The notes under the pieces: model-generated
Seen by the model: only the letters and a program-made list of their open reading frames with translations
Databases searched by the model: none
Told to the model about the DNA's origin: nothing
Shown here: positions 9,997-64,000 of the stretch, in pieces
Position numbering within the stretch: position 1 is the stretch's first letter
Layout: each line of letters starts with the position of its first letter
Assembly: GCA_964383585.1 (NCBI GenBank)
Contig: CAYLHQ010000023.1
Location: forward strand, 2,707-66,706
DNA from: an uncultured Acidobacteriota bacterium
GTDB taxonomy: Bacteria; Acidobacteriota; Polarisedimenticolia; Polarisedimenticolales; DASRJG01
Direction of reading: 5' to 3'
Length of the DNA stretch: 64,000 nt
Program-made: the position numbers and the translations under genes

Positions 9997-10665
9997 TCAC
10001 GCGGCGTTGAAGGTGATCGGGACGCGCATGCGGAACTGGACCGGCTCGCCCTTTCGGGTGCCCGGCTCGAACTTCCACTGCTTGACCGCCTCGATCGCGG
10101 GACGCTCGAAGGCGGGGTCGGTCGACTGGTCGACCTTCGCGTCGGCGACGCGCCCCTGCCGGTCGACGGTGAAGAGGACGTAAACCGTTCCCTGGCGTTT
10201 CTGCTTTCGCAGTTCGGCGGGGTAGGTCGGCGGCCTCTGGAAGATCGGGCGCGGCTTCTGGTCGAGGTCGCTCAGGGAGAAAATCTCGTCGAGCCCCGCC
10301 CCCCCTCCCTCGACCAGTTGGTTGACGAGCTTGACGGTGAAATCGCCGAAAAGCCCTTCTCCGACCGTCGGTTCGAGCGCCATCTCGAGCTGGCTCAGGT
10401 CGAGCGGGGGAGCGCTCTCCGTCAGCTCGGGGGTGGACTCGGGCGCCTCCTCCTCCTCGACTTCCTCCTCCGGAGGGGGCGGAGGAGGAGGCGGGAGCTC
10501 GGCGACGTCGAGGTTTCGGATCTCGAGGTCCGCGTTCCTCTGGGCGCTGATCGTCTGGAGCACCGGCAGGACGAGGAAGAGGGAGAACGTGACCCCCGTC
10601 GCGAAGAGCGCCACGAGGACCCTTCCGAGGATCCGGCGGAGGAGGCTCTCCCTCTTGCGCTTCAT
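9997..10665 (-). CDS. tonB: Energy transducer TonB
   Basis: N-terminal TM helix, Pro/Glu-rich linker, C-terminal YPAE...QGTVYVLFTVDRQGRV...AVKQWKFEPG. Confidence 0.92.
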   Translation of the reverse strand: MKRKRESLLRRILGRVLVALFATGVTFSLFLVLPVLQTISAQRNADLEIRNLDVAELPPPPPPPPEEEVEEEEAPESTPELTESAPPLDLSQLEMALEPTVGEGLFGDFTVKLVNQLVEGGGAGLDEIFSLSDLDQKPRPIFQRPPTYPAELRKQKRQGTVYVLFTVDRQGRVADAKVDQSTDPAFERPAIEAVKQWKFEPGTRKGEPVQFRMRVPITFNAA

Positions 10666-10682
10666 CTCCGGACCGCTCCCTC

Positions 10683-11093
10683 CTACGACGCCTGGCGCCG
10701 GGAGGCGACGCTGACCTTCGTCGCTCCCGCGAGCTTGGCCTCGTCGACCACGCGGACGAAAAGCCCCGTCGGGACCAGCGCGTCCGCCTGGACGATCACG
10801 GGGACGTCCTCCTTCTGGAGCATCCGCTTGACGAGAGGGCGCACGCCCGAGATCCCGATGTCCCGGCCGCCGTACACCACGTTCCCGTCCGCGGTGATCG
10901 CGATCAGGATGCTCGTCTTCTCGAGACGGACCGCGGAGGCGGCCTGGGGCTTGTCGACCTCGACGCCGGTCTCCTCCACGAAGGTCGTCGTCACGATGAA
11001 GAAGATCAGGAGGATGAAGACGCAGTCGATGAGCGGGGAGATGTCGATCCCCCCGGTCTCTTCCTCCTCCGAGAACGAACGGAAGCGACCCAC
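10683..11093 (-). CDS. exbD: Biopolymer transport protein ExbD/TolR
   Basis: [21 protein letters not shown] motif. Confidence 0.93.
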
Positions 11094-11096
11094 GGA

Positions 11097-11750
11097 TCAG
11101 CCCTCCAATGCCCTGGGATCCACGGGGAGATTGAGGTGCGCCCGGCGGCGGACCTCTCGACGGGAAGCGAAGAACTGCAGGCAAACCGATTCGAGGTGGG
11201 CGAGAAACGCCCGGTACCGGTCCCTCTCGCGGGTCAGGTGGTACTGGAGGAAGAGGCCCGGAAGGGCGATGACGAGGCCGGTCTCGGTCGTGATCAGCGC
11301 CTCCGAGATCCCGCCCGCCACGAGGTTCATCGTCTTGTCCCCGCCGGAACCTTCCGCGAGCGCTCGGAAGGTCGAGAGCATTCCCGTGACGGTCCCGAGG
11401 AGACCGAGGAGGGGAGCCGCCGCCACGCAGATCTTCATGAAGCGCAGGTCGCGCGCGAAGGGGGCGATCTCGGTCGCGTGGAGCTCCCCGAAACGGATCT
11501 CGAGGTCCTTGATGCGGTCGGCCTCCATCACGAACTCGATCACGTCTCCGACGGGCCCCTCCCGCTCTTCGGGACGCGCGATCCAGCGCCGCCAAACCGT
11601 TTCGGGGACCGAACGGAAGCCGCGCCCGCGCAACTTCCACCAGAGGTTCCCCCCGACGGCGAACAGGAGAAGGGACGTGGCCGCGAGCGGAAACATCGCC
11701 CACCCTCCGGCCCCCCACACCTCGATCGCCTGGGAAACGAGTCCGCTCAT
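11097..11750 (-). CDS. exbB: MotA/TolQ/ExbB proton channel protein
   Basis: AAPLLGLLGTVTGM and GISEALITTETGLVIALP. Confidence 0.92.
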   Translation of the reverse strand: MSGLVSQAIEVWGAGGWAMFPLAATSLLLFAVGGNLWWKLRGRGFRSVPETVWRRWIARPEEREGPVGDVIEFVMEADRIKDLEIRFGELHATEIAPFARDLRFMKICVAAAPLLGLLGTVTGMLSTFRALAEGSGGDKTMNLVAGGISEALITTETGLVIALPGLFLQYHLTRERDRYRAFLAHLESVCLQFFASRREVRRRAHLNLPVDPRALEG

Positions 11751-41592: not shown

Positions 41593-42726
41593 TTGGACAT
41601 CCGGATCCCGCTCTCCCGCCCCGACCTCGACGAGACCGACTTCGACGCGGTCTCCCGGGTCCTCCGTACCGACATCCTGAGCCTGGGGCCGACGGGGCCG
41701 GCCTTCGAGGAGGCGATCGCCGCCTACACGGGGGCGCGCCACGCGGTGGCGGTCAACAGCGGCACGAGCGGCCTCCACCTCGCGGTGATCGCCCTCGGGA
41801 TCGGGGCCGGGGACGAGGTGGTGACGACCCCCTTCTCCTTCGTCGCTTCGACGAACTGCTTCCTCTTCGAGGGAGCGACGCCGGTCTTCGCCGACATCGA
41901 CCCCGACACCTGGGATCTCGATCCATCGGCGGCCGAGGCCGCGATCACGGGACGAACGCGCGCTCTCCTCCCGGTCCACGTCTTCGGGAGGCCGTGCAAG
42001 ATCGAGGCGTTCGTCGCGCTCGGCCGGAAACGGGGGCTCGCGGTCCTCGAGGACCCGTGCGAGTCGCTCGGCTCGACGGTCGGCGGGAAGATGACCGGCA
42101 CCTTCGGCGACGCGGGGGTCTACGCCTTCTACCCGAACAAGCAGATCACGACGGGGGAAGGAGGGGTCCTCGTGACCGACCGCGAGGAGATCGCGGCCCT
42201 TTGCCGGAGCCTGCGAAACCAGGGTCGCGGCGCGGGAGGGGGCTGGCTCGAGCACGAGCGGATGGGATTCAACTACCGCCTCGCCGATCTCAACGCGGCG
42301 CTCGGCCTATCCCAGCTCCGGCGTATCGAGACCTTCATCGAGATGCGCGCGCGGGTGCACGCCCTTTACGGCGAGGCCCTCGCGGACGTCCCCGAGGTGA
42401 TCGTGCCTGCCCCCGCGCGCCCGGGAGAGCGCATCTCCTGGTTCGTCTACGTCGTTCGCCTCGCGGATCGATTCACCCGCGAGGACCGCGACCGCGTCCT
42501 CGTCGAGCTGCGGCGGCGCGGAATCGCCTGCCGGAACTACTTCGTCCCGATCCATCTCCAGCCCTACATGCGGGAGCGGTTCGGTTTCCGCGAAGGGATG
42601 TTCCCGGTGACCGAGGCGGTGAGCGCCCGGACGATCTCCCTCCCCTTCCACAACCGGATCACCGAGGGGGAGATCGCGGAGACCGCCGCGGCCCTCCGGG
42701 CGGCAATCGCGGCGGTCGAACGCTAG
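41593..42726 (+). CDS. DegT/DnrJ/EryC1/StrS family nucleotide-sugar aminotransferase
   Basis: NSGTSGLHLA, PVHVFG, YAFYPNKQITTGEGG, GFNYRL. TTG start after CAGGAG. Confidence 0.93.
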   Translation: MDIRIPLSRPDLDETDFDAVSRVLRTDILSLGPTGPAFEEAIAAYTGARHAVAVNSGTSGLHLAVIALGIGAGDEVVTTPFSFVASTNCFLFEGATPVFADIDPDTWDLDPSAAEAAITGRTRALLPVHVFGRPCKIEAFVALGRKRGLAVLEDPCESLGSTVGGKMTGTFGDAGVYAFYPNKQITTGEGGVLVTDREEIAALCRSLRNQGRGAGGGWLEHERMGFNYRLADLNAALGLSQLRRIETFIEMRARVHALYGEALADVPEVIVPAPARPGERISWFVYVVRLADRFTREDRDRVLVELRRRGIACRNYFVPIHLQPYMRERFGFREGMFPVTEAVSARTISLPFHNRITEGEIAETAAALRAAIAAVER

Positions 42727-42727
42727 A

Positions 42728-44278
42728 TTGGGCCCCGTGGAACCGTTCCTCCTGCACGAGTTCCTCTCCCGGTCGGCCGACCGGGACCCGTCCGCTCCGG
42801 TCCTCGTGCAGGGGGTGTCCCGCGTTTCTTACGGCGAAGTCGAGAGCGAGGCGAACCGGATCGCCCGCCTCCTCCGCGAGGAAGGGATCGCGCGCGGAGA
42901 CCGCGTCGGCGTCCTCGACGACAACGGCCCGTTCTACGTCGCGGCGTACTACGGCGTGCTCAAGGCGGGGGCGATCGCCGTTCCGCTCAACACCCACCTC
43001 GACCCGCACTCCCTCCGCACCCAGCTCGTCGATTGCGAGGCGCGGGCGCTCGCGGCCGGGACCCGACTCGCCAACCTCGCGCGCCGGTCGATCGAGGGGA
43101 CCCCCTCGGTCGAGTTGCTCCTCTCCCCCGCGCCGGTCGAGGCGAAGGTCCGCGTCCGCACGCGCGGGGACTGGTCGTCCCTCGACGGCGCCTCGGCCCC
43201 GGGGGTCGCGCTCCTCGACCTCGACCGCGCCTCGATCGTCTACACGTCGGGAAGCACCGGGAAGCCGAAAGGCGCGACCCTCACCCACCTGAACCTCGTC
43301 GCGAACACGAGGAGCATCGTCCGCTACCTCGGCCTGACCGCGGCCGACCGGATGCTCGTCGTCCTCCCGTTCTTCTACGTCTATGGGAAATCGCTCCTCA
43401 ACACCCACGTCGCGGCGGGGGGAAGCCTGGTCCTCGAAAACCGATTCCTCTTCCCCCAACTCGCGGTCGACGCGATGGAGCGGGAGGAGGCGACCGGCTT
43501 CGCCGGGGTTCCCTCGACCTTCGCGATCCTGCTCGACCGGACGAACGTCGCGAGGAAGCGCCTCCCCGCGCTCCGCTACCTGACGCAGGCCGGCGGAGCG
43601 ATGGCTCCCGCGACGATCCGCCGGGTCCTCGAAACGTTCCCGGGAAAGAAGCTCTGGATCATGTACGGGGCGACCGAGGCCGGGGCGCGCCTGACGTACC
43701 TCCCGCCGGAGGACCTCCCGCGGAAGATCGGCTCCATCGGGATCGCGATCCCGAACGTCGAGATGCGCGTCCTCCGGAGGGACGGCACCGAGGCGGCGCC
43801 GAACGAGGAGGGAGAACTGGTCGCGCGGGGTTCGAACCTCATGGAGGGGTACTGGAACGACCCCGAGGAGACGGCGCGCGTCCTCGACGGTAACGGGTAC
43901 CACACCGGCGACCTCGGCCGCCGCGACGAGGATGGCTACTTTTGGGTCCTCGGCCGTACCCGGGAGATGATCAAGAGCGGCGCCCATCGGATCTCCCCGA
44001 AGGAGATCGAGGAGGCGATCCTCGAGCACCCGGGGGTTTCGGAAGCGGCGGTGATCGGCGTTCCCGACCCGCTCCTCGGTGAGGCGATCCGGGCTTATGT
44101 CGTCCCCCGCGCCGGCGCGGCGTTGAGCGGGGAAGAACTGGGGACATTCCTCAAAGACCGCCTCGCCGCCTACAAGATTCCGGGCCGATTCGTGACGCTC
44201 GAAGCACTCCCCAAGAGCGCCGCAGGAAAGATCCGGAAGGACCGCCTGCGCGAGCAGGCGGCGGAGGAACGGACGTGA
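42728..44278 (+). CDS. AMP-forming acyl-CoA/acyl-ACP ligase (ANL family)
   Basis: YTSGSTGKPKG, MYGATE, YHTGDLG, SGAHRISPKEIE, LPKSAAGKI. Confidence 0.92.
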   Translation: MGPVEPFLLHEFLSRSADRDPSAPVLVQGVSRVSYGEVESEANRIARLLREEGIARGDRVGVLDDNGPFYVAAYYGVLKAGAIAVPLNTHLDPHSLRTQLVDCEARALAAGTRLANLARRSIEGTPSVELLLSPAPVEAKVRVRTRGDWSSLDGASAPGVALLDLDRASIVYTSGSTGKPKGATLTHLNLVANTRSIVRYLGLTAADRMLVVLPFFYVYGKSLLNTHVAAGGSLVLENRFLFPQLAVDAMEREEATGFAGVPSTFAILLDRTNVARKRLPALRYLTQAGGAMAPATIRRVLETFPGKKLWIMYGATEAGARLTYLPPEDLPRKIGSIGIAIPNVEMRVLRRDGTEAAPNEEGELVARGSNLMEGYWNDPEETARVLDGNGYHTGDLGRRDEDGYFWVLGRTREMIKSGAHRISPKEIEEAILEHPGVSEAAVIGVPDPLLGEAIRAYVVPRAGAALSGEELGTFLKDRLAAYKIPGRFVTLEALPKSAAGKIRKDRLREQAAEERT

Positions 44279-44514
44279 GCCAGGAAACCCTCGATCGGGT
44301 CGCGACGATCGTCGCCGGGGTTCTTCCTCCGGGGACGTCGCGGCCGGGTCCGAAGGACGATCTCCTCGATCTCGGCCTCGACTCGGTCGGGATGATCACC
44401 CTCTTGGGCGAAGTCGAGGCGGCATTCGGCCTCGCGATCCCCCCGGAGGACGTGATGCCGGAGAACTTCGCGAACGTCGCGGCGATCGCGGAGCTGGTCG
44501 AGAGGATCAGGTAG
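44275..44514 (+). CDS. Acyl carrier protein
   Basis: DLGLDSVG phosphopantetheine site. Overlaps the ligase stop. Confidence 0.9.
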   Translation: MSQETLDRVATIVAGVLPPGTSRPGPKDDLLDLGLDSVGMITLLGEVEAAFGLAIPPEDVMPENFANVAAIAELVERIR

Positions 44515-45142
44515 GGGGAATTGCCCGCGCCGGGTTCCCGAACACGGTGACTCCCGCGGGAACGTCCCTCAGAACCACGGCCCCCGCCCCCACGACGGCG
44601 CCGTTCCCCACCGAGAGCGACGGGAGGACCGTCGCGTTTGCGTGGATCTGGCATCCCTCGCCGACCGTCACCTTCCCGAGGAGGTTCACTCCGGGGGCCA
44701 CCGTGGAGTAGTCGCCCAGCACGACGTGGTGTCCGACCGTGGCGTTCAGGTTGACCGTCACGTGGGCACCGAGGCGCGCCTCGTAGACGATCGCAACCCC
44801 GGCGTTGACGATCGAGCCCGGCCCGATCGAGACGCTCGGCGAAAGCGACGCCGTCGGGTGGACCGCGGTCGCCCAGCGCGCCCCCGCGGCGTCGAGCTTC
44901 CCGGCGAGCTTCCGCTTCGCGCCCGGCGCGGCGATCGCGAGGAGGACCCGCGCGTCGAGGGAGGAGAGGTTCGCCGCGAGCCAGTCGGTCGTCCCGAGCA
45001 CCGGAATCCCGAGAACCGGGCCGGCCTCCGGGTCGTCGTCCGCGAAGCCGACGACCTCCGCCCCTCCGATCCGCATCAGGATCTCGAGGACCCCGCGTCC
45101 GTGGTCCCCCGCCCCGACGAGCACGATCCGCTCAGCGCCCAT
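44507..45142 (-). CDS. NeuD/PglD-family sugar acetyltransferase (hexapeptide repeats)
   Basis: LVGAGDHGR, VHPTASLS, LNATVGHHVVLG, VFGNPAR. Confidence 0.9.
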   Translation of the reverse strand: MGAERIVLVGAGDHGRGVLEILMRIGGAEVVGFADDDPEAGPVLGIPVLGTTDWLAANLSSLDARVLLAIAAPGAKRKLAGKLDAAGARWATAVHPTASLSPSVSIGPGSIVNAGVAIVYEARLGAHVTVNLNATVGHHVVLGDYSTVAPGVNLLGKVTVGEGCQIHANATVLPSLSVGNGAVVGAGAVVLRDVPAGVTVFGNPARAIPPT

Positions 45143-45782
45143 CGCGCGCCTCCCGCTCCTTCGCCCGTTCCTTCCAGTAATCGCGGCCCGCGATCATGTC
45201 CTGCCCTTTCAGGATCGACGGGATGGTGAGAAGGATGATCTTCAGGTCCATTGCGAGGGAGACCCGTTCGACGTACTCGAGGTCGAGTTCGATCCGGCGC
45301 GGCCACTCGATCGAGTTCCTTCCGTTGACCTGCGCCCAGCCGGTCACCCCCGGCTTGACGAGAAGGCGGCGGCGCTGGACGTCGTCGTAGAGCTCCACCT
45401 GGTAGCGGAGGCCGGGCCGCGGTCCGACGACGCTCATCTCCCCCGTGACCACGTTGAAGAGCTGCGGGATCTCGTCGAGGCTCGCTTTTCGGATGATTCT
45501 CCCGACCCGCGTCACCCTCGGATCGCCCTTTTCGACGAGCGCTCCCGCTCCCCTGTGCTCCGCCCCGACGACCATCGAGCGAAACTTCCACAGACGGAAG
45601 GGCCGGCCGTTCCGCCCGATCCGTTCCTGCCGGTAAAACGCCCCCCCGCGGGATTCGAGCACGATCGCGAGGGCGACGAGGAGCCAGAGGGGCGAAAGGA
45701 GGGCGAGCGCGGCGAGAGACACCACGAGATCGAGGACGCGCTTTCCGAACCGAACGTAGACGGTCGGCTTCGGGCCGCTCAT
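45132..45782 (-). CDS. Initiating sugar-phosphate transferase (PglC/WcaJ/EpsL type)
   Basis: KRVLDL, KFRSM, SLDEIPQLFNV, SVVGPRP, KPGVTGWAQVNGRN. Confidence 0.93.
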   Translation of the reverse strand: MSGPKPTVYVRFGKRVLDLVVSLAALALLSPLWLLVALAIVLESRGGAFYRQERIGRNGRPFRLWKFRSMVVGAEHRGAGALVEKGDPRVTRVGRIIRKASLDEIPQLFNVVTGEMSVVGPRPGLRYQVELYDDVQRRRLLVKPGVTGWAQVNGRNSIEWPRRIELDLEYVERVSLAMDLKIILLTIPSILKGQDMIAGRDYWKERAKEREARDGR

Positions 45783-47020
45783 CGTCCCGCCTCGAGCAGC
45801 TGGAGCGGCGCGCAGGGGAACACCGCCACGCGCGGGCGGTCTCCCGCGAGGGCCCGAACGCGCCGGACCGCGCCGGCCCACGTCGGCTCGAACGGGTACC
45901 CTTCCCAGAACGAAACGCGCGCGTCGGCCTCGTTCAGATTCGGCGAGTGGAAGACGACCGGCCGGCCCTCGAGCCATTCGCGCTCGACCGGCTTCCGGTA
46001 GAGGCGCCCGCCGGGGCCGTGGAGCGAATGCCAGCCTCGCCCGCGCGGGCAGGCTGCGGTCACGACGACCGCACCCCCCGATCGCACCGGCATCGCGTTC
46101 GAGGAGCGCAGCACGTTGAAGGCGTTCCCGACCTGAAGCAGCTCGCCGTCCTTCGGGTAGGCGTTGAGGACGACGACATCGGCGGGACGGGACGGCGCAC
46201 GGGTGGCGTACACCTTCCGCGCGAGGGCAACCGCCGCGCGATGCGCGGCGACCGGGTGCCCGTAGAAGACCCCGGCGGTGCGGCGGCGCTCGTCGGTGAC
46301 GACGTTGACGATCGCCTCGAGACCGACCCGGAGCGCGATCTCCTCCATCTCCTCGCGCGCGGTGTTCGTCTCGACATTCCCGAGCCCACCGCTCACCCCC
46401 GTCACGGCGGGACGGTGATTCGCCTCGAGCGTCTCGATTCCGGACACCCCGGGAAGCACGATCTTCGCCCCGCCGCCGAACCCGGCGTAAGGGTGCGGCA
46501 GCACCGATCCCACGGCGATCTTGAGATCGGCCTCGTGGAAGAGTCGGTCGATCCGGATCGGGATCCCGCGCCTCGAAGTGCCGAGATCGACCAGGTTCTC
46601 GTAGGGGTGGTGGTTCGCGACGGAATATTGCGAGACGATCGTCCGCCCCAGCTTGCGAATCAGGTCGGGCCGCTCCATCGGGGCGTGTGCTCCCGATCCG
46701 ACGAGGATCCGGGTGCGCTCGCGAGGAACCCCGCCCGCGTGGATCGCGGCGAGGACGGCAGGGAGGATCTCGTCGAGACGCGCCGGGCGCGTGCCATCTT
46801 CGACGACGATGCAGGCGTCGCGGCGGCCGCGGGCGAGATCCTCGAGCGGCTTTGCCTCGATCGGTTCCGCGAGCGCCCGGGCGACCGCACCCTGCGGTGC
46901 GGGGCGCGCCCCCTTCGGGCGGTACACCGTCACACGCCAGCCCGGAGGGACGGCGAGCCGCCGCTCCCGCTCTCCGAATCCCGCTCCCCAGGGGAGGACG
47001 ATGGCGGGTCCTGCGCTCAC
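45779..47020 (-). CDS. LarA-superfamily (lactate racemase/DUF2088) nickel-pincer-dependent isomerase homolog
   Basis: IVVEDGTRP, LVGSGAHAPM, PHPYAGFGGGAKIVLPGV, EANH, VFYGHPVAAH. Confidence 0.82.
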   Translation of the reverse strand: MSAGPAIVLPWGAGFGERERRLAVPPGWRVTVYRPKGARPAPQGAVARALAEPIEAKPLEDLARGRRDACIVVEDGTRPARLDEILPAVLAAIHAGGVPRERTRILVGSGAHAPMERPDLIRKLGRTIVSQYSVANHHPYENLVDLGTSRRGIPIRIDRLFHEADLKIAVGSVLPHPYAGFGGGAKIVLPGVSGIETLEANHRPAVTGVSGGLGNVETNTAREEMEEIALRVGLEAIVNVVTDERRRTAGVFYGHPVAAHRAAVALARKVYATRAPSRPADVVVLNAYPKDGELLQVGNAFNVLRSSNAMPVRSGGAVVVTAACPRGRGWHSLHGPGGRLYRKPVEREWLEGRPVVFHSPNLNEADARVSFWEGYPFEPTWAGAVRRVRALAGDRPRVAVFPCAPLQLLEAGR

Positions 47021-47988
47021 TCCTCGTCGGGCTCCACCTCGACGGCGGGGATGTCCTGGCCGCGCGAGCCGAGGAAGATCACGATCTCGCCGATGAGGCC
47101 GATGGAGACGATCTGGACGCCCAGGACGAGGAGAAGGACGCCGAGCAGGAGCAGCGGCCGCTCCGCGAGGGCGGTCTTTCCGAAGAGGCGTTCGGCGGTC
47201 AGCCAGAGGGCGATCGCGAGGCCGACGGCCCCGAGCGCGAGGCCGATCAGACCGAAGAACCGGAGAGGCTTCCTCGTGAACTTCGTCAGAAAGAAGATCT
47301 GGAGGATGTCGAGGAGGCGGCGCGCGTAGACCCCGGGTCCGAAGACGCGGAGCCGGGCGTCCTCCTCGCGTTGCCGGACGGGGATCTCCTGGACGGCGAA
47401 GCCCCGCGCCGCGGCGAGGATCGGGAGGAACCGGTGCAGGTCGCCGTAGAGTTCGAGAGAGCGCGCCGCCTCCCGCGTGAAGCCGCGCAGGGCACAGGTC
47501 ATGTCCTGGAAACGCCTCCCCGAAAGCTTGCGGGTGAGCGCGTGGAAGACTCGGGCTTGCAAACGGTTGAGCAACGGGTCCCGACGCGGCTCCCGGCGCG
47601 TGACGACGACTTCGTCCCCCGCGTCGAGGCGGCCGAGGACGGCGAGGAGGTCGTCCGGTTCGACCTGGAAGCGGTCGGGGATCGTGACGACGAGGGCACC
47701 GCGGGCGCGCGCGAAGGCGAGGTCGAGCGCCGCCGCCTCGCCGAACCCCTTCGCGAGGCGGAAGACCTTCCGGGAGAACGGCCCCGCGGGCTCGGCGAGC
47801 AGCGAAGCCTCCGCTTCCGGCCGGGGACCGTTCAAGACGTAGAGGAACTCGGCCGAGCGTCCGTTCCGCGCCACGACCTCGGAGTAGGCGCGATGCACGG
47901 CTCCGAGATCCTTCGCCAGCCGGCTCACCGAGCAGACGACACTCAGGTCGATCTCGGCGCCGTCGGATGCCCGGCGCGACGGCCTCAT
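47017..47988 (-). CDS. Glycosyltransferase family 2 (ArnC/Dpm1-like) with C-terminal TM helices
   Basis: FGEAAAL, DMTCALRGF, GDLHRFLP, C-terminal QIVSIGLIGE. Confidence 0.85.
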   Translation of the reverse strand: MRPSRRASDGAEIDLSVVCSVSRLAKDLGAVHRAYSEVVARNGRSAEFLYVLNGPRPEAEASLLAEPAGPFSRKVFRLAKGFGEAAALDLAFARARGALVVTIPDRFQVEPDDLLAVLGRLDAGDEVVVTRREPRRDPLLNRLQARVFHALTRKLSGRRFQDMTCALRGFTREAARSLELYGDLHRFLPILAAARGFAVQEIPVRQREEDARLRVFGPGVYARRLLDILQIFFLTKFTRKPLRFFGLIGLALGAVGLAIALWLTAERLFGKTALAERPLLLLGVLLLVLGVQIVSIGLIGEIVIFLGSRGQDIPAVEVEPDEE

Positions 47989-49055
47989 GCGGAGTCTCCC
48001 TTCGGCGCGACCCCGTTCTCCGCGACGGGCGCCGCGAGGACCGCGGCGAGCCGCGACAGGAAGGCCTTGTCGGAGCCGGCGAGAACCAACTCCCCGAAGA
48101 CCGAAAGGGCGAGGAGGTGTCCGGCCAGGTAGAAGAACATCGCCGCGACCGAGGGGAAGACGATCGTCGCGGCCCCCGCGGGCCCACGCAGTTGCCAGAG
48201 CCACGCGGCCGCCGCCACGCCTCCGAGGACGAGCCACGGAAATGCGAGCCTTCCGAACCACGCCGACGGGCGCGAGCCGAACTGCGTGATCATCTTGATC
48301 GTGACCATGTCGGCGAGGACCTTGAACGTACGGGAGATCCCGTACTTGCTCTCCCCGTGGATCCGCGGGTGGTGCCGAACGACCACCTCGTCGATCCGCG
48401 CCCCCGTCATTGACGAGAGCGCCGGAAGGAACCGGTGCATGTCGGAGTAGAGACGGAGCGACCGGATCACCTCCGCCCGGTACGCCTTGAGCGAGCACCC
48501 GTTGTCGTGGATCGGTACCCCGGTCATCCAGGCGATGATCCGGTTGGCGATCTTCGACGGGAGTTTTCTCGAAAGCCACCTGTCCTTCCGGTCCTTCCGC
48601 CACCCGCAGACGACGTCCCATCCCGACTCGACCCGGTCGACGAGAAGAGGAATGTCCCGGGGATCGTTCTGGAGATCGCCGTCCATGCTGACGATGATCC
48701 TCCCGCGCGAGTGGGCGAACCCGGTCGCCATCGCGGCCGTCTGGCCCGAGTTCCGCCGCAGGAAGAGGAGACGGAACCGCCGGTCGCGGCGGCGCTCCTC
48801 GACGAGACGTTCCCGCGTCCCGTCCCGGCTCCCGTCGTCGACGAGGACCGCTTCCCAAGTGCGGGGCCACTCGCGCAGCGCCTCCCGGATCGCGGCGCAG
48901 AGGGGCCCCACGTTCGCTTCCTCGTTGTAGAGGGGAACGACGATCGAGACGTCGGGACCGGTCGACGGCACGGAACCGAACGATACGGACCGGGTGGGCG
49001 CGGTGTCAACGCGCCGAAAGTCGTGAGTCCCCGGGAACGGCCGTTTTCCTCTCAT
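47985..49055 (-). CDS. Glycosyltransferase family 2 (polyprenol-phosphate sugar transferase-like)
   Basis: VSIVVPLYNEE, VDDGSRD, RNSGQTAA, MDGDLQNDP, DNGCSLKAYR. Start uncertain. Confidence 0.9.
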   Translation of the reverse strand: MRGKRPFPGTHDFRRVDTAPTRSVSFGSVPSTGPDVSIVVPLYNEEANVGPLCAAIREALREWPRTWEAVLVDDGSRDGTRERLVEERRRDRRFRLLFLRRNSGQTAAMATGFAHSRGRIIVSMDGDLQNDPRDIPLLVDRVESGWDVVCGWRKDRKDRWLSRKLPSKIANRIIAWMTGVPIHDNGCSLKAYRAEVIRSLRLYSDMHRFLPALSSMTGARIDEVVVRHHPRIHGESKYGISRTFKVLADMVTIKMITQFGSRPSAWFGRLAFPWLVLGGVAAAAWLWQLRGPAGAATIVFPSVAAMFFYLAGHLLALSVFGELVLAGSDKAFLSRLAAVLAAPVAENGVAPKGDSA

Positions 49056-49213: not shown

Positions 49214-50020
49214 ATGGAACCCACTCCCTGGCAACTGCAGATGTTCTCGAAGTCCCTGAAAAAGCGGCAGAAGCTTCGCCTCATCCTGAAGCAACTGGGC
49301 GAGTTGGAAGGCCTGCGCTGCGCCCTCGTCACGAACGGGGACAACAACGGCGCCCTGAATCACCACTTCCGCGCCGCGGGGGGAAGCTGGATCTGGGTCG
49401 AGAACGAGCCGGAGCACATCGCCGAGATGGAGGAGTTGCTCGGAGAGCGGGTTCTCGCCGGGTCCCCGGACAAGATCCCGCTCCCCGACGGTTCGCTCGA
49501 CGTCGTCGTGAGCATCGACGTCCACGAGCACCTCACCGACTGCCGCCCGTTCTCCCGCGAGCTTGCCCGAGTGGTGAAACCCGGCGGTACGGTGATCGCG
49601 AGCACGCCGACGGGGGAAACCTGGAAACCGGTGACGGTCCTCAAGCACCTCGTCGGCATGCGCAAGGAGGACTACGGCCACGTCGTCGTGGGGTACACCC
49701 TCGAGGACCACGAACGGATGTTCCGTGAAGCGGGGATCGAGCCGGTCGCGCGGGGAACGTACTCGAAGTTCTTCACCGAGATGCTCGAGCTCGCGATCAA
49801 CTTCGCCTACGTGAAGATCCTCGCGAAGAAGAAGGCGGGGCCCGCCGTGAAGGAAGGAACGATCGCTCCCTCCTCGAAAGACCAGCTCCGGGCGGTCGAA
49901 AAGCAGCTCCGCGTGTATTCGTTCGCCTATCCCTTCCTGCGGGCGATCTCGAGCCTCGACGCCCTCCTCTTCTTCTTCCGCGGGTACGCGGTCTCCGTGG
50001 TGGGGAGGCGGTCCGCGTGA
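49214..50020 (+). CDS. Class I SAM-dependent methyltransferase-like protein
   Basis: IPLPDGSLDVVVSIDVHEHL and ARVVKPGG. Motif I is atypical (LVTNGDNNG). Confidence 0.75.
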   Translation: MEPTPWQLQMFSKSLKKRQKLRLILKQLGELEGLRCALVTNGDNNGALNHHFRAAGGSWIWVENEPEHIAEMEELLGERVLAGSPDKIPLPDGSLDVVVSIDVHEHLTDCRPFSRELARVVKPGGTVIASTPTGETWKPVTVLKHLVGMRKEDYGHVVVGYTLEDHERMFREAGIEPVARGTYSKFFTEMLELAINFAYVKILAKKKAGPAVKEGTIAPSSKDQLRAVEKQLRVYSFAYPFLRAISSLDALLFFFRGYAVSVVGRRSA

Positions 50021-51027
50021 GCGAACGGGTGCTCGTCACCGGCGCGGGGGGGTTCATCGGCAGCCACCTCGCCGCCGACCAGCTGCGACGGGGGCGGACG
50101 GTCGTGGCAGTCGACCTCCACCTCGACCGCCTCGCCCCCCTCGGCACCCGCGCCGGCCTCGAACGGATCGAGGGGGACGTCGCCGACCCCGAAGTCCAGG
50201 CGCGCGCGGTCCGCGGCGTCGACACCGTCTTCCACCTCGCGGCCGCCCACCTCGGCGCCTCGGTCCCCGCCTCGGAGTTCGACCGCATCAACGTCTCCGG
50301 GGTGAAGACCCTCGTCGACGCGTCGGCCGCGGAGCGGGTGCGCCGCTTCGTCCACTGCAGCAGCGTCGGCGTGTACGGTGAGGTGGCCGATCCCCCGTAC
50401 GACGAGGACTCTCCCTGCCGGCCCGAACTCGATTACGAGCGGACCAAACTCGCGGGAGAGCGGGTCGTCCTCGAAGCGGCGAAGGCGGGATTTCCGGGGG
50501 TCGTTCTCCGCCCGGCCTGGGTCTACGGGCCCGGATGCCCGCGCACGGAGAAGCTCTTCCGGTCGATCGGGAAGGGCCGGTTCTTCCTCGTCGGGAAGGC
50601 CGACACGCTCCGGCACTGCGTCTACATCCGCGACATGGTCGACGCGTTCGAACTCGCCGCGCGGAGCGACGCGGCGCTCGGAAAGGTCTTCGTGATCGCG
50701 GACGCGGGCGCGGTTCCCGTGAGGGACCTCGTGCGCGAGATCGCCCGCCTCACCGGGGCGCCGATGCCGCGCACGGTGCCGGCGCCGCTCTTCCTCGCGG
50801 GGGCGGTCGCGCTAGAAGCCGCGTTCGGCGTTTTCGGGAAGGAGCCTCCGGTCTCCCGGCGCACGATGCGGTTTTTCACGGGAAACACCGCGTTCGACAT
50901 CTCGCGCGCCCGCTCGGTCCTCGGGTACGAACCCCGGTGGGATTTCGCGCGCGGGCTCGAGGAAACGGCGGCGATTCTCGCGCGCGGCCCCTTCCACGTC
51001 CCGCTCCCCGAAAGGGCCGCGCCGTGA
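50017..51027 (+). CDS. NAD-dependent epimerase/dehydratase
   Basis: VTGAGGFIGSHL, HCSSVGVYG, YERTK, RPAWVYGP. Confidence 0.93.
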   Translation: MSERVLVTGAGGFIGSHLAADQLRRGRTVVAVDLHLDRLAPLGTRAGLERIEGDVADPEVQARAVRGVDTVFHLAAAHLGASVPASEFDRINVSGVKTLVDASAAERVRRFVHCSSVGVYGEVADPPYDEDSPCRPELDYERTKLAGERVVLEAAKAGFPGVVLRPAWVYGPGCPRTEKLFRSIGKGRFFLVGKADTLRHCVYIRDMVDAFELAARSDAALGKVFVIADAGAVPVRDLVREIARLTGAPMPRTVPAPLFLAGAVALEAAFGVFGKEPPVSRRTMRFFTGNTAFDISRARSVLGYEPRWDFARGLEETAAILARGPFHVPLPERAAP

Positions 51028-54888: not shown

Positions 54889-56318
54889 TCGCCCGCGACC
54901 CCGAAACCGCGGCGCGGACCTCCTGGGACCTCGTGGTCGTGGGCGGGGGCGTCTACGGCGTCGGAGTCGCGCTCGAGGCGGCCCGGCGCGGCCTCCGTCC
55001 CCTCCTCCTCGAGCGGGGTGACTTCGGCGGGGAGACGACCTGGAACAGCCTCCGGATCGTCCACGGGGGCCTCCGCTACCTCCAGAGCCTCGACCTCCCT
55101 CGCTTCCGGGAGTCGGTCCGCGAGCGCCGCTGGTTCCTCCGCCATTTCCCCGATCGGGTCGAGCCGCTCCCGTGTCTGATGCCGCTCTACGGGGAAGGGG
55201 CCCGCCGTCCTTCGATCCTCGCGGCCGCGCTCGCGGCGAACCATCTCCTGTCCGCCACGAAGAATCTCGGGGTGCGGGGGGATCGGAAGCTCCCCTGGGG
55301 AGGGATCGCGTCGGCGGCCGAGGTGCGGAGGATCTTCCCGGGAGCGAGGCCCGACGGCCTCCGCGGAGGAGCGATCTGGTTCGACGCCGTCATGCCCGAC
55401 TCCGAGCGACTCCTCGTCGAGATGCTCCGCGCCGCCTGCGACCTCGGCGCCTCCGCCCTCAACCGGATGGAGGCGGTCTCGATCCGCGTCCGAGGAGAAC
55501 GCGCGGTCGGGGTCGTCGCGCGCGACGCGGAGACCGGGATCGAGCGGTCGTTCGACGCACCGGTCGTCGTGAATTGTGCCGGCCCTTGGGCGCGGGAGTT
55601 CGGGGACATTCCTGATTTGTTCCACCCTTCGCTCGCCTTCAATCTCCTGTTCGACCGCCCACCGGTGTCGACCCACGCCGTCGCGGTCGCCCCCCCGAAT
55701 CCGGGCGCCCGCACCTACTTCGTCACCGGCTGGAAGGGACGGCTCTTCGCCGGGACCTACCACCACGGGTGCGATCCGTCGGTCCGAACGGCGTCGCCGA
55801 GCGAATCGCAGATCGACCGATTCGTCGCCGACCTCAACGCGGCGATTCCCGGTTTCGACCTGCGGCGCGGCGAGATCTTGCGCGTTCACGCCGGGCTCCT
55901 CCCCGCGCGGCGCCCGGGGAGCGACGCGCTGGCGGTGAGGGAGACGATCCACGACCACGGAGCCGCGGGGGGACTCCGCGGACTCCACTCGGTCTCCGGG
56001 GTCAAGTGGACGACGGCGCGACTCGTCGGCGCGAAGACGGTCGACCGGATCTTCCCCGGACGCCGAGCCCTTCCGTTCTCGCGATCGCCGGGACCGCCCC
56101 CCCCCTCCTGGCGGGAGTTCCGCGATCTCGCCGCGCGCGACCGCTCCGCCGCCCGCGCCGTCGTCGAGGCGATCGTCCGGCGCGAATCGGTCCGCACTCC
56201 GGAGGACCTCGTGCTGCGGCGGACCGGCTGGGGCTCGGTCCCCTCCGACGCGCTCGAAGCGGAAGCGCTCGTCCTCGAACTCCTCGGGCCGGGCGCCTTC
56301 GCCGGAGCGATGCGTTGA
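54885..56318 (+). CDS. FAD-dependent oxidoreductase, glycerol-3-phosphate dehydrogenase (GlpA/GlpD) family
   Basis: VVVGGGVYG, LLLERGDFGGETT, VHGGLRYL, NCAGPW, KWTTAR. Confidence 0.85.
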   Translation: MIARDPETAARTSWDLVVVGGGVYGVGVALEAARRGLRPLLLERGDFGGETTWNSLRIVHGGLRYLQSLDLPRFRESVRERRWFLRHFPDRVEPLPCLMPLYGEGARRPSILAAALAANHLLSATKNLGVRGDRKLPWGGIASAAEVRRIFPGARPDGLRGGAIWFDAVMPDSERLLVEMLRAACDLGASALNRMEAVSIRVRGERAVGVVARDAETGIERSFDAPVVVNCAGPWAREFGDIPDLFHPSLAFNLLFDRPPVSTHAVAVAPPNPGARTYFVTGWKGRLFAGTYHHGCDPSVRTASPSESQIDRFVADLNAAIPGFDLRRGEILRVHAGLLPARRPGSDALAVRETIHDHGAAGGLRGLHSVSGVKWTTARLVGAKTVDRIFPGRRALPFSRSPGPPPPSWREFRDLAARDRSAARAVVEAIVRRESVRTPEDLVLRRTGWGSVPSDALEAEALVLELLGPGAFAGAMR

Positions 56319-57289
56319 GCGGCCGTTCGGTCCAGGTCGTCCTCCGGACCGCGGTGGGGATCGCCCTCCTCGGCTGGCTCCTCTCCGCCCTCGATCCGCA
56401 AGAGGTCGCCCGGTCGCTCGGAGGCGCCGACTGGCGCTGGGTGGCGGGAGGTCTCGCCGCCCAACTCGTGGCCAAGTTCGTCTGGGCGGCCCGGTGGCGG
56501 CGGATCCTCCTCGCGGGCGGTGTGCGGCGCGGGTTCTGGGACCTCCTCGCCCTCGTCCACATGGGACTCTTCTTCAACAGCTTTCTCCCGACGTCGGTCG
56601 GAGGGGACCTCGTCCGCGGCTACTACGCCTCGGGCCGCGGCGGGAAGACCGCGTCCTATGCCGCGCTCCTGGTCGAGCGCGGGATCGGGTTCGTCGCGAT
56701 GCTCGCCGTCGGCGGCGTCGCCGCGTCGCTCGCGCTCTTCGAGGAGGCCCCTCCCTTCCCCCCGCCGGTCCTCGTCGGCGTCGCGATCGGCGCGGGGCTC
56801 GCGGTCGCGCTCGGCCTCCTGGTCCCCCGGGTCGGATGGGTCGATTGGATCTCCGGCCGCCTCGCGTCCCGCGGCGGGCGCCTCGCGCGGCTTTCGACCC
56901 CCCTTTCGGAGTCGTCGAGGCTCTTTCGCGCGGGGGCCTCCTCCCCCGCGATCGTCGGCTGGTCGATCGCACTCCAGTTCGTCGCCGTCCTCTTCCACGT
57001 CGCGTGCGCGAGGGCGGTCGGGATCGAGGTCCCTCTCCTCGACTTCTTCCTGATCGTGCCCGCCTCGGTCGTCGCCTCCATGATCCCGATCTCGCTCAAC
57101 GGCCTCGGGATCCGCGAGGGCGTGCTCGTCGCCCTGACGACCGTCCGCGGCGCGGGAGGGGCCGACGCCGGAGGATTCGCGCTGCTCGCCCTTCTCCTCT
57201 CCACGCTCTTCGCGGGGATCGGTGGAATCCTCTATGCCCTCGGAATGCTCGGACGGATCGGAGGCCGAAGTGTCGCGTCTCGCCCCTGA
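56315..57289 (+). CDS. Lysylphosphatidylglycerol synthase TM-region (flippase-like, UPF0104) membrane protein
   Basis: Multiple TM helices, RWRRIL, FFNSFLPTSVGGDLVR, PISLNGLGIRE. Confidence 0.85.
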   Translation: MSGRSVQVVLRTAVGIALLGWLLSALDPQEVARSLGGADWRWVAGGLAAQLVAKFVWAARWRRILLAGGVRRGFWDLLALVHMGLFFNSFLPTSVGGDLVRGYYASGRGGKTASYAALLVERGIGFVAMLAVGGVAASLALFEEAPPFPPPVLVGVAIGAGLAVALGLLVPRVGWVDWISGRLASRGGRLARLSTPLSESSRLFRAGASSPAIVGWSIALQFVAVLFHVACARAVGIEVPLLDFFLIVPASVVASMIPISLNGLGIREGVLVALTTVRGAGGADAGGFALLALLLSTLFAGIGGILYALGMLGRIGGRSVASRP

Positions 57290-60890: not shown

Positions 60891-63800
60891 ATGTACCGAA
60901 TCGTCCTGCGCTCCTCCACCCCCCCGCGGGGATCGCGTGCGCGGCGCCTCGTCGCCGTGCTCGGAGGGCTGTCTCTCGCGATCTTCCTCGTCGCCCCCGC
61001 GCTCGCGGCGGACACGGACGGGGACGGCGTCGACGACGCGTTCGACTGCGCGCCGAACCTTCGCGCGACGTGGACGACACCCGGAGAGACACCCGATCTT
61101 CGCTTCGACGCGTCGGGGGCGCTGACCTGGAACGGAGCGCCTCAGGCGCACGTTTACAACGTCTACCGCGGCTCGGTCGCCGCGGACGACCCGTTCTCGT
61201 ACAACCACGCGTGCCGCGCGCCTCAGCTCGCCACGCGCGAGACGGTCGACGCCGAAGACCCGCCTCCCGGCGTCCTCTTCTACTACGTCGTCGGAGGCCG
61301 GAACGGCTGCGGCGACGGGACCCTCGGGGAAGGGACGGCCGGCCCGAGGCCGGACGGCGCGGCCTGTGCGGTCGACCCGCTCGCCGACTCCGACGCGGAC
61401 GGCATCCCCGACCTCGACGACGTCTGCGCGGCAACGGCGGACGCCGCGCAGGAAGACGCCGACCTCGACGGGGTCGGCGACACGTGCGACGTGTGCCCCT
61501 CCGCAGGCGACCCCGCGCAGTCCGACGCCGACGGGGACGGCGTCGGCGACGCCTGCGACCCCTGCCCGGACGACCTCAACAACGACCCCGACGCCGACGG
61601 GCTCTGCGACGTCGCGGACAACTGCCCGGCGGTCGCGAACGCCGATCAGGCCGACGCCGACGCCGACGGGTTCGGAAACGTCTGCGATCCGTGCCCCGTC
61701 GATCCGGGGAACGACGCCGACGCCGACGGAGTCTGCGCGGACGCCGACAACTGCCCGGCGATCTCGAACGCCGGCCAGGAGGACGCGGACGGGGACGGGA
61801 TCGGAAACGTCTGCGATCCGTGCCCCCTGGACCCCGCGAACGACACGGACGCCGACGGCGTCTGCGGCGACGTCGACAATTGCCCCGCGATCGCGAACCC
61901 CGGCCAGGCCGATCTCGACGGCGATGCGCAGGGAGACGCCTGCGACCTCGACGACGACGGGGACGGCGTTCCCGACCTCGCCGACAACTGCCCCGCGATC
62001 GCGAACGCCGGCCAGGAGGACGCGGACGCCGACGGAACGGGCGACCCCTGCGACGCATGCCCCAACGACCCCTCCGACGACGTCGACGCCGACGGCGTAT
62101 GCGGCCTCGACGACAACTGCCCCGCCGTCGCGAACGCCGACCAGGCGGACCTCGACGGCGACGCGCAGGGAGACGCGTGCGACCTCGACGACGACGGGGA
62201 CGGGGAACCGGACGATTCGGACAACTGCCCGGCGGTCGTGAACGCGGACCAGGCCGACGCCGACGCCGACGGGATCGGCGACGCCTGCGACGCGTGCGGG
62301 AACGATCCCGGGAACGACCTCGACGGCGACGGTCTCTGCGGCGATTCCGACAACTGCCCCTCCGTCGCGAACCCCCTCCAGACCGACACCGACGGAGACG
62401 GGTTCGGCGATCCTTGCGAACCCCGGCGGGTGAACTTCAGCCCCGCCGCGTCGGCGATCCCTCCCGACTTCGTCAAGGACGACGGAAGCGCCTTCTCCGG
62501 GGCGCGCCGGTACGGGTGGAACGCGGCGGTCGAAACGCGCGAGACGGTCAGTCCGGAACCGCTCGAGCGGGATACCTTCGCGCTCGTGACGGTCGAGCGG
62601 CGGTGGACCTTCGAGCTCCCGCCGGGCGACTACGACGTCCGGGTCGTCGCCGGGGACGCGGTCGATCCGCGAGGCCCCCACCGGGTCGAAACCGAGGGTG
62701 TCCCGGCGATCGCGGACGTTGCGACCGCGGCGGGCGAGTTCCTCACGGAGACCCGCCGCGTCCGCGTGCGGGACGGCCGGCTCGACTTCCGGGTCGGGGG
62801 GAGCGCGGGCGACACCGCTCTCGACTACACCGAGATCTTTGTCGCTCCCGACACGAAGCCCTCGCTCCGCTCGATCAACTTCGAGCCTTCGACCTCGGCG
62901 ACCCCCGCGGGGTGGGAGCGGGACACGGGGGCGGTCTTCTCCGCCGCGCGGGGCTACGGCTGGAGCGAAACGCCGGCGATGCGGGACCGCGCACGCGACG
63001 TGCCGCAGGTGCTCGACACCTTCGCGTTCACCTCGGCGCCGAAGACGTGGGATCTCGTCGTCCCGAACGGCTTCTGGGACGTCTGGCTCTCGATCGGCGA
63101 CACCGACTTCCCGCACGCCCGGCAGCGGGTCCTGCTCGAGGGCGTTCCCGTCATCCCCGCGGCCGACACCGTCGCCGGTCAGTTCGTCGAGGTTCGGACG
63201 GGCGCCGAGGTCGCGGACGGGCGCCTGTCGGTCACGATCGGCGGCAACATTCAGAACACCTGCCTCAACTACGTCGTCGTCGCCCCGGCCGCTCCGGACG
63301 CCGACGGCGACGGGTTGGCGAACGAGTCGGACAACTGCCCGTTCGTCACGAACGCCGACCAGGCGAACGCCGACGGTGACGCCCTCGGAGACGCGTGCGA
63401 CGCCGACACCGACGGCGACGGGACCGAGAACTTCCGGGACAACTGTCCGGCCACTCCGAATCCGACCCAGACCGATTCCGACGGCGACGCGTTCGGCGAC
63501 GCCTGCGACAACTGCCCGGCCGTGGCGAACTCGAGCCAGGCGAACGCCGACGGCGACGCCTTCGGCGACGTCTGCGACGCTTGCCCGGCCGACCCGCTGA
63601 ACGACGCGGACGCCGACGGCGTGTGCGGCAATGTCGACAACTGCCCCGCGGTTGCGAATGCCGAGCAGGGGAATGGCGACGGAGACGCGTTGGGCGACGC
63701 CTGCGACGCTTGCCCCGCCGACCCGTTCAATGACGCGGACGCCGACGGCGTGTGCGGCAATGTCGACAACTGCCCCGCGGTCGCGAACGCCGACCAGCTC

Positions 63801-64000
63801 AACGCGGATGGTGACGCCTTCGGCGACGCCTGCGACGCCTGCCCCAACGATCCGTTGAACGACGCGGATGCCGACGGCGTCTGCGGCAACGCCGACAACT
63901 GCCCGGCGGTCGCGAATGCCGACCAGGTGAACACGGACGGCGATGCCCTCGGCGACGCGTGCGACGCTTGCCCCGCCGACCCGCTCAACGACGCGGACGC
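60891..64000 (+). CDS. Large secreted thrombospondin type-3 (TSP3) repeat protein with an N-terminal Cys-containing domain and two galactose-binding-like domains; runs off the window
   Basis: Translated by hand from ATG 60891. Signal region, at least 13 DNC motifs in DxDxDG..D.CDxC repeats (often 129-bp period). Central tandem domains NF.P....P..W..D.G..F...R.YGW...G.YDV....GD. Confidence 0.88.
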   Translation, partial: MYRIVLRSSTPPRGSRARRLVAVLGGLSLAIFLVAPALAADTDGDGVDDAFDCAPNLRATWTTPGETPDLRFDASGALTWNGAPQAHVYNVYRGSVAADDPFSYNHACRAPQLATRETVDAEDPPPGVLFYYVVGGRNGCGDGTLGEGTAGPRPDGAACAVDPLADSDADGIPDLDDVCAATADAAQEDADLDGVGDTCDVCPSAGDPAQSDADGDGVGDACDPCPDDLNNDPDADGLCDVADNCPAVANADQADADADGFGNVCDPCPVDPGNDADADGVCADADNCPAISNAGQEDADGDGIGNVCDPCPLDPANDTDADGVCGDVDNCPAIANPGQADLDGDAQGDACDLDDDGDGVPDLADNCPAIANAGQEDADADGTGDPCDACPNDPSDDVDADGVCGLDDNCPAVANADQADLDGDAQGDACDLDDDGDGEPDDSDNCPAVVNADQADADADGIGDACDACGNDPGNDLDGDGLCGDSDNCPSVANPLQTDTDGDGFGDPCEPRRVNFSPAASAIPPDFVKDDGSAFSGARRYGWNAAVETRETVSPEPLERDTFALVTVERRWTFELPPGDYDVRVVAGDAVDPRGPHRVETEGVPAIADVATAAGEFLTETRRVRVRDGRLDFRVGGSAGDTALDYTEIFVAPDTKPSLRSINFEPSTSATPAGWERDTGAVFSAARGYGWSETPAMRDRARDVPQVLDTFAFTSAPKTWDLVVPNGFWDVWLSIGDTDFPHARQRVLLEGVPVIPAADTVAGQFVEVRTGAEVADGRLSVTIGGNIQNTCLNYVVVAPAAPDADGDGLANESDNCPFVTNADQANADGDALGDACDADTDGDGTENFRDNCPATPNPTQTDSDGDAFGDACDNCPAVANSSQANADGDAFGDVCDACPADPLNDADADGVCGNVDNCPAVANAEQGNGDGDALGDACDACPADPFNDADADGVCGNVDNCPAVANADQLNADGDAFGDACDACPNDPLNDADADGVCGNADNCPAVANADQVNTDGDALGDACDACPADPLNDAD

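Follow-up and report, generated by a model that had tools for sequence, protein, structure and literature searches.

A 64,000-nt stretch of DNA from an uncultured Acidobacteriota bacterium (contig CAYLHQ010000023.1; hereafter the window) carries at positions 45779–47020, on the minus strand, a gene for a LarA-superfamily protein, here simply called LarAH, that lies within a glycan locus. LarAH belongs to an uncharacterised LarA subfamily with a conserved biosynthetic context, and we lean towards reading it as a nickel-pincer C2 racemase or epimerase. It would supply a 2-hydroxyacyl group which an AMP-forming ligase (AMP-ligase), an acyl carrier protein (ACP) and an acyltransferase put on a 4-amino sugar, the subfamily as a whole being a dedicated part of this glycan N-acylation module.

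Fold, active site and cofactor supply of LarAH

The LarAH gene starts with GTG and encodes a 413 aa protein with a Lar_N domain, in which the residues binding the nickel-pincer nucleotide (NPN) and both catalytic His are kept. Since the stretch has a GC content of ~70% and therefore many spurious open reading frames, real genes were picked by their codon-position GC; the values for LarAH (GC1/2/3 = 0.77/0.53/0.86) are like those of the real genes of the window. The original prediction had the gene overlapping a GT2 glycosyltransferase gene upstream and the gene for the initiating transferase downstream, and both 4-nt overlaps can be read directly: the GT2 gene at 47017–47988 ends in GAG GAG TGA and LarAH starts at the GTG of GTGA, while LarAH itself ends in CGA TGA and the Bac_transf gene (45132–45782) begins at the ATG of ATGA. 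This observation holds, and 45779–47020 is a genuine LarA-superfamily gene.

Pfam Lar_N matches residues 15–204 (E = 1.8e-50; 171.4 bits against a gathering cut-off of 23.3), and Pfam Lar_C gives no match in the protein. Every sequence alignment of LarAH with solved or curated LarAs ends near residue 330, and the final ~85 residues are without sequence similarity to known LarAs; the fold of this part is kept in the AlphaFold2 (AF2) model. The model, based on a 46-sequence alignment, has a pLDDT of 92.1 and a pTM of 0.91, and Foldseek aligns it over its full length to 9eia, 6c1w and 8ezf with TM scores of 0.84–0.85. The C-terminal lobe displays its own set of invariant residues (Cys324, His331 and His334), together with the near-invariant Arg328, Arg339, Arg342 and Arg353.

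In LarA, Arg75 binds NPN, Lys184 is the thioamide tether, His200 is the Ni ligand and His108 and His174 are catalytic. Residue conservation was assessed on 46 LarAH homologs of 47–92% identity, in which the equivalents of Asp72, Arg75, His108, His174, Lys184, His200 and Gln295 are invariant (D75, R78, H112, H176, K186, H202 and Q296 in LarAH numbering). The motifs PH..AG..GG.K..LPG and NH, pointed out in the original prediction, are present and align to functional LarA residues: GAHAP holds His108, PHPYAGFGGGAK runs from His174 to Lys184, ANH holds His200, and DGTRP contributes Asp72 and Arg75. The catalytic set is nevertheless incomplete, which that prediction had missed: the NPN residues, both His, Asp72 and Gln295 are kept, whereas Tyr294 is replaced by Leu295 and Lys298 by Asn299, both replacements being invariant in the subfamily. 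In the D-lactate complex Tyr294 and Lys298 bind the substrate hydroxyl and carboxylate (bioRxiv 2024.11.28.625916), and Lys298 is classed as catalytic by Desguin et al. (PMC7583248). The loop that follows the His174 equivalent also differs, with P177-Y178 in LarAH as against F175/F176 in LarA.

The missing Lys298, described as catalytic, together with the inactivity of LarAH23 from the possibly related Group 23, would suit a catalytically dead or non-NPN scaffold with a structural role in a glycan assembly complex. We find this very unlikely, as neither the NPN-binding residues nor the two catalytic His vary among the 46 sequences down to 47% identity, the same residues are largely kept in 150 representatives down to ~32%, and the cofactor pathway is kept in the genome.

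Among the NCBIfam models, LarAH is most like the malate racemases LarAH6 (NF052593, 233 bits against a cut-off of 500) and LarAH5 (NF052595, 220 against 462), followed by the lactate racemase LarA (NF033504, 199 against 460) and LarAH10 (173 against 540). Placement in a characterised LarAH family was rejected, because every equivalog score is less than half its cut-off. The ESM Atlas returned generic LarA-like clusters only. An epimerised sugar acid, one of the products first proposed, is left without support, since the models for hexonate/gluconate epimerase and LarAH14/15/16 (NF052594 and NF052592) fit at 35 and 38 bits against cut-offs of 500 and 740. As for racemisation of a free alpha-hydroxy acid in the manner of known members, the LarA fold stands, but the activity is not secure with Lys298 and Tyr294 replaced and scores below all LarAH cut-offs. 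The same evidence bears on whether LarAH is an ordinary metabolic racemase, acting on free lactate, malate or similar, that sits in a glycan locus by chance. Its best likeness is to LarAH6, LarAH5 and LarA and the nearest solved structures are lactate and malate racemases, yet those scores fall short of half the cut-offs, the specificity residues differ (P-Y in place of F-F, L/N in place of Y/K), and the gene overlaps on both sides and the synteny across phyla speak against a chance location. We consider such a racemase most unlikely.

The genes for making the cofactor, larB, larC and larE, had been noted as absent from the window, and this is correct; all three are present elsewhere in the genome, where they were looked for, dispersed over contigs C2 (larB, 293 bits, cut-off 175), C7 (larC) and C37 (larE, 279 bits, cut-off 150). 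A profile search of the genome found no Lar_N protein besides LarAH. In a survey of 13 genomes of the same taxonomic family, LarC was found in all 13, LarB in 12 and LarE in 10, while a Lar_N protein is encoded in two, both of this genus, and the other 11 have none. Because these relatives keep larBCE without Lar_N, the NPN pathway is ancestral in the lineage and not maintained for LarAH alone; the lineage was able to make NPN before it gained LarAH together with the glycan locus. The 11 genomes that lack Lar_N may encode an enzyme of another family that uses NPN.

Conserved gene linkage of the LarAH subfamily

The synteny scan took one genome per species and gave 31 loci. A core set is formed by 15 species-level loci with a LarAH of at least 51% identity, from several Acidobacteriota lineages and from Eisenbacteria. 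The gene for a small phosphoglycosyl transferase (PGT) is the next gene after LarAH in 14 of these 15; the gap between the two is −4 to +29 nt in 13 core loci and 176 nt in L024, whose LarAH is apparently truncated, and a NeuD-type transferase then follows the PGT in 12. The fifteenth locus, L019, was set aside in this count. There (L019:9983–12475) the LarAH frame is truncated at about residue 376 and runs without a stop into thrombospondin type-3 (TSP_3) repeats; we rejected it as a LarAH fusion and consider it probably a rearrangement or an assembly chimera.

The remaining genes of the module are often close by. An AMP-ligase and a DegT aminotransferase, and in several cases an ACP too, lie within 10 kb in L010, L011, L018, L020, L021 and L024. 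The Pfam map of L043 reads GT4-LarAH-Bac_transf-PglD_N, with AMP-binding, PP-binding, two DegT, a PglF-type dehydratase and Wzy in addition. In L045, from Eisenbacteria, LarAH-Bac_transf stands 4 kb from a PglD_N/AMP-binding/PP-binding/DegT operon, and in L044, again mapped at Pfam level, a PglF-type dehydratase is found beside a module with the LarAH-PGT-acyltransferase trio. Near this trio (L044:5115–7365) the AMP-binding ligase is missing, as in a subset of acidobacterial loci, and its place is taken by an AsnB-like amidotransferase directly followed by an ACP and by CapK-like adenylating enzymes, with a DUF362 protein alongside.

The linkage extends to distant relatives. In Gemmatimonadota and Vicinamibacterales homologs of 36–42% identity an ACP gene lies directly upstream of LarAH. 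The Gemmatimonadota loci L026, L029 and L030 have an AMP-ligase directly downstream, L029 being a partial locus that does not cover the ACP position, and two of the three have a PGT 2–6 kb away and a sigma-54 regulator. The LarAHs of these three loci (~10001–11200, ~410 aa) belong to a sister clade of the subfamily, in which Asn stands at the position of the second catalytic His (IIPNPF...). At 44% identity, and with an identical residue signature, L046 has the order ACP-ligase-LarAH-PglD_N-Epimerase_2-DegT-dehydratase; L049 (39%) encodes a hexapeptide transferase, an 82-aa open reading frame, a ligase, LarAH and Wzx; and in L050 (34%) the ACP and LarAH genes overlap by 4 nt, with a GT2 and a FemAB-like gene alongside. 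Altogether the module is found in Acidobacteriota, Eisenbacteria and Gemmatimonadota and on metagenome contigs that are not binned. The connection with glycan genes, on which the original prediction had been staked, is therefore conserved across phyla down to 34% identity, and it is specifically a linkage to the ligase and ACP. Of what that prediction proposed, a hydroxy-acid stereoisomer supplied to the glycan via the ligase-ACP pair is what this conserved linkage supports best, and we keep it as a proposal.

Genes for D-isomer-type 2-hydroxyacid dehydrogenases were observed in two of the LarAH clusters, at L046:14389–15236 (the cluster end) and L047:5851–6822. A dehydrogenase in such clusters would fit a route from a keto acid to a hydroxy acid and on to the inverted hydroxy acid.

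In the tree, the core and sister sequences group together (support 93/93) apart from the Y-Q-x-x-K homologs. A search of representatives returned 5477 LarA-superfamily clusters, 1043 of them at E ≤1e-30. The 150 nearest form a diverse radiation of ~410 aa proteins that keep D, R, H, H, K, H and His331 and vary at 175/176, 294 and 298, where position 298 is N, K, M, T, A and others. Two relatives with other loop residues stand in catabolic settings, P0125 beside a 2-hydroxyacid dehydrogenase, MocA oxidoreductases and inositol-type genes, and P0131 beside urocanase; the glycan/ACP link is therefore specific to the H-P-Y/F ... L-Q-x-N signature. The literature searched contained nothing linking LarA/DUF2088 homologs to ACPs, glycosyltransferases, PGTs or glycan loci.

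The core linkage could also be read in favour of an NPN-dependent sugar epimerase, in which LarAH would flip a ring hydroxyl of the sugar itself, carried by a nucleotide or a lipid, to give the stereoisomer accepted by the neighbouring PGT, the hydroxyl being transiently oxidised and the hydride returned to the opposite face. In the core clade no gene stands beside LarAH more often or more closely than that of the PGT, the two overlapping or nearly so; LarAH lacks Lys298 and Tyr294, which bind carboxylate and hydroxyl; and His331, His334, Arg328, Arg339, Arg342 and Arg353 of the remodelled C-terminal lobe could bind a diphosphate. In agreement with this, phosphosugars have been suggested as substrates of single-His LarAHs (PMC12611868), and 'another hydride-mediated reaction' has been allowed for groups without K298 (PMC7583248). 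However, the conserved partners of the distant homologs are ACP and ligase, not PGT or sugar-nucleotide enzymes; LarAH retains Arg75 and Gln295, two further carboxylate-binding residues; and a LarA-family enzyme with a non-acid substrate is not known. As proof of a non-acid substrate the exchange of Lys298 for Asn is weakened, since the position is variable and Asn is also found there in relatives from catabolic contexts. We regard a sugar epimerase as rather unlikely.

The glycan locus and a proposed N-acylation route

The minus-strand operon of the window begins with two GT2 genes, of which the first (47985–48971, 328 aa) is of the ArnC-like polyprenyl-phosphate glycosyltransferase type and the second (47017–47988, 323 aa), also ArnC-like, has the stop that overlaps the LarAH start. 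LarAH is followed by the PGT (45132–45782, 216 aa), a small monotopic, PglC-like enzyme of the Bac_transf family (PF02397, 1.9e-66; NCBIfam EPS_sugtrans, 287 bits), and by a NeuD/PglB/VioB-family hexapeptide N-acyltransferase (44507–45142, 211 aa; PglD_N and Hexapep; TIGR03570, 208 bits, above the cut-off of 160.8). The closest solved structures of the latter are VioB, the acetyltransferase domain of Neisseria PglB, PerB and PglD, and its solved relatives all N-acylate 4-amino-4,6-dideoxy sugars. Three genes converge on this operon from the plus strand, with overlapping starts and stops. They encode a DegT/PseC-type sugar aminotransferase (41593–42726, alternative start 41497; PF01041, 9.5e-114; best NCBIfam match PseC at 324 bits, below cut-off), a stand-alone AMP-forming adenylating ligase (42728–44278, 516 aa; AMP-binding and AMP-binding_C) and an ACP (44275–44514, 79 aa; PP-binding, 7.4e-13) that has the phosphopantetheine-attachment motif LGLDS and whose start overlaps the ligase stop. 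The ligase scores 389 bits, below cut-off, with TIGR03098 (exosortase-A-associated ligase), and its PDB neighbours are acyl-, oxalate- and malonyl-CoA ligases. The locus thus brings together a pgl-type initiating set of small PGT, DegT aminotransferase and PglD/NeuD N-acyltransferase.

We infer which class of substrate is used, what reaction takes place and how the steps follow one another. The DegT enzyme would aminate UDP-4-keto-6-deoxy-HexNAc, and the AMP-ligase would adenylate a 2-hydroxy acid and load it onto the ACP. The NeuD/PglD-type transferase would then transfer the acyl group to the 4-amino group of the initiating trideoxyhexose, after which the small PGT would put the finished sugar onto polyprenyl phosphate for extension by the GT2 enzymes. 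In this scheme LarAH would invert the hydroxyl-bearing C2 of the acyl unit through the LarA hydride-shuttle mechanism, with two His and tethered NPN, converting the enantiomer of central metabolism into the one carried by the glycan; its substrate could be the free acid before loading or a carrier-bound thioester. The scheme has chemical precedents: the first sugar made by Neisseria PglB2 is a trideoxyhexose bearing a glyceramido (2-hydroxyacyl) group, GATDH (PMC11130364), and LarAHs have been proven to act on glycerate, lactate, malate and 2,4-dihydroxybutyrate (PMC11770544).

Several points weigh against C2 inversion for sugar N-acylation. Lys298, catalytic according to PMC7583248, and Tyr294 are both replaced in the subfamily, and groups without H174 or K298 might not invert stereocentres and possibly carry out 'another hydride-mediated reaction' (PMC7583248). 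LarAH23, from what is possibly the nearest published group, was inactive on all seven assayed activities (PMC7583248). The presence of larBCE, considered as proof of LarAH function, proved uninformative, since the family keeps these genes without a LarA homolog. Some core loci have no AMP-binding ligase within 10 kb and contain AsnB-like plus ACP and CapK-like ligases instead, and in the window the PDB and NCBIfam neighbours of the AMP-ligase do not discriminate its substrate. No PglF-type 4,6-dehydratase is encoded within the window, which has only a generic short-chain dehydrogenase/reductase (SDR) gene at 50017–51027; the best Polysacc_synt_2 match of the genome is on contig C10, outside the window. 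Finally, acetyl-CoA is the normal donor of NeuD/PglD enzymes, so that the identity of the NeuD/PglD enzyme does not fix which enzyme unloads the ACP.

A bolder version of C2 inversion would make LarAH the first nickel-pincer enzyme to act on a substrate bound to a carrier protein, epimerising a 2-hydroxyacyl-S-ACP thioester or the finished 2-hydroxyacyl-amido sugar in place of a free acid. Such an activity would account at once for the absence of carboxylate-binding Lys298 and Tyr294 throughout the subfamily and for the conservation of ACP-LarAH(-ligase) operons down to 34% identity; we hold this version to be unlikely.

To the right of the LarAH operon lie genes for a methyltransferase, an SDR, a GT4, an AsnB-type amidotransferase (TIGR03108, 584 bits, below the equivalog cut-off) and a GlpD-like flavoprotein, then for a flippase-like protein, a second methyltransferase, an alpha/beta hydrolase and a NodU-like carbamoyltransferase; a sigma-54 two-component pair lies to the left of the locus. 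The tandem ArnC-like GT2 genes (47017–48971), together with the LPG_synthase_TM/flippase-like gene (56315–57289), suggest an additional route in which single sugars are linked to lipid for decoration in the periplasm. Wzx, Wzy and Wzc were not seen within the window. Directly after the glycan cluster, a protein of more than 1035 aa with ten repeats (60891–63998) runs off the window; it matches the MtsC cell-cohesion MYXO-CTERM model and Omp28-related models.

Comparison with known systems

To our knowledge, a substrate is known for less than half of the LarA superfamily. The present locus gives a subfamily without Lys298 a testable setting, composed of an adenylating enzyme, a carrier protein, LarAH, an amino-sugar N-acyltransferase and an initiating transferase. 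Should C2 inversion for N-acylation be borne out, nickel-pincer chemistry would extend from catabolism and fermentation to cell-surface glycan biosynthesis, a new class of chiral 2-hydroxyacyl decorations would be predicted on soil-bacterial polysaccharides, and enzymologists seeking the LarAH substrate would have a defined set of partner proteins.

LarAH shares its two-domain fold with LarA of L. plantarum (5HUQ/6C1W), the broad-spectrum LarA of Isosphaera pallida (9EIA) and the malate racemase Mar2 (6D6Z), as well as the NPN-tethering Lys, the Ni-ligand His, the Asp/Arg pair and the two catalytic His. It differs from these characterised enzymes by an identity of 24–29%, by Leu for Tyr294, Asn for Lys298 and the P-Y loop, and by a biosynthetic context (glycan, ACP) where theirs is catabolic or fermentative.

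Two published groups come closer in part. Group 23 (PMC7583248), with LarAH23 of I. pallida and Deba_0774 of D. baarsii, shares with LarAH an N-terminal 'PWG' motif and a length of ~410 aa; Deba_0774 is without the Gln295/Lys298 pair and, by eye in Dataset S2, has a C-terminal region similar to that of LarAH. Most Group 23 members nevertheless keep Q-x-x-K, unlike LarAH, and Table S1 reports no conserved gene context for them, in contrast to the strong one of the LarAH subfamily (PMC7583248). Kinship to Group 23 is therefore a lead only, given by motif-level resemblance in rows of Dataset S2. The single-His LarA-like enzymes of Group 17 (9Q2U/9Q3J/9Q3K, PMC12611868) have, as LarAH does, an altered active site and a suspected carbohydrate link, but these are ~500-aa octamers encoded beside glycolytic genes, at 15% identity, whereas LarAH has 413 aa and keeps both His (His176). 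The Gemmatimonadota LarAHs with Asn for the second His, ~410 aa long and flanked by ACP and AMP-ligase, also differ from the published ~500-aa single-His enzymes of Group 17.

On the side of the locus, exosortase-A (PEP-CTERM) exopolysaccharide loci resemble the LarAH locus in their acyl-CoA ligase, ACP and AsnB-type amidotransferase (TIGR03098, TIGR03108). The likeness includes the sigma-54 two-component pair near the LarAH locus, while neither the ligase nor the AsnB score reaches its equivalog cut-off; an exosortase was not seen within the window, and no LarA homolog came up connected with exosortase-A systems in the searches made. Like the LarAH locus, the pgl-type bacillosamine pathways act on the first sugar with a DegT enzyme, an N-acyltransferase for the 4-amino sugar and a PGT, which is small or fused. 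Neisseria PglB2 has an ATP-grasp domain and is without ACP, AMP-ligase or LarA homolog; compared with it, the LarAH locus has a nickel-pincer enzyme in addition, and its acid is presumably bound to a carrier.

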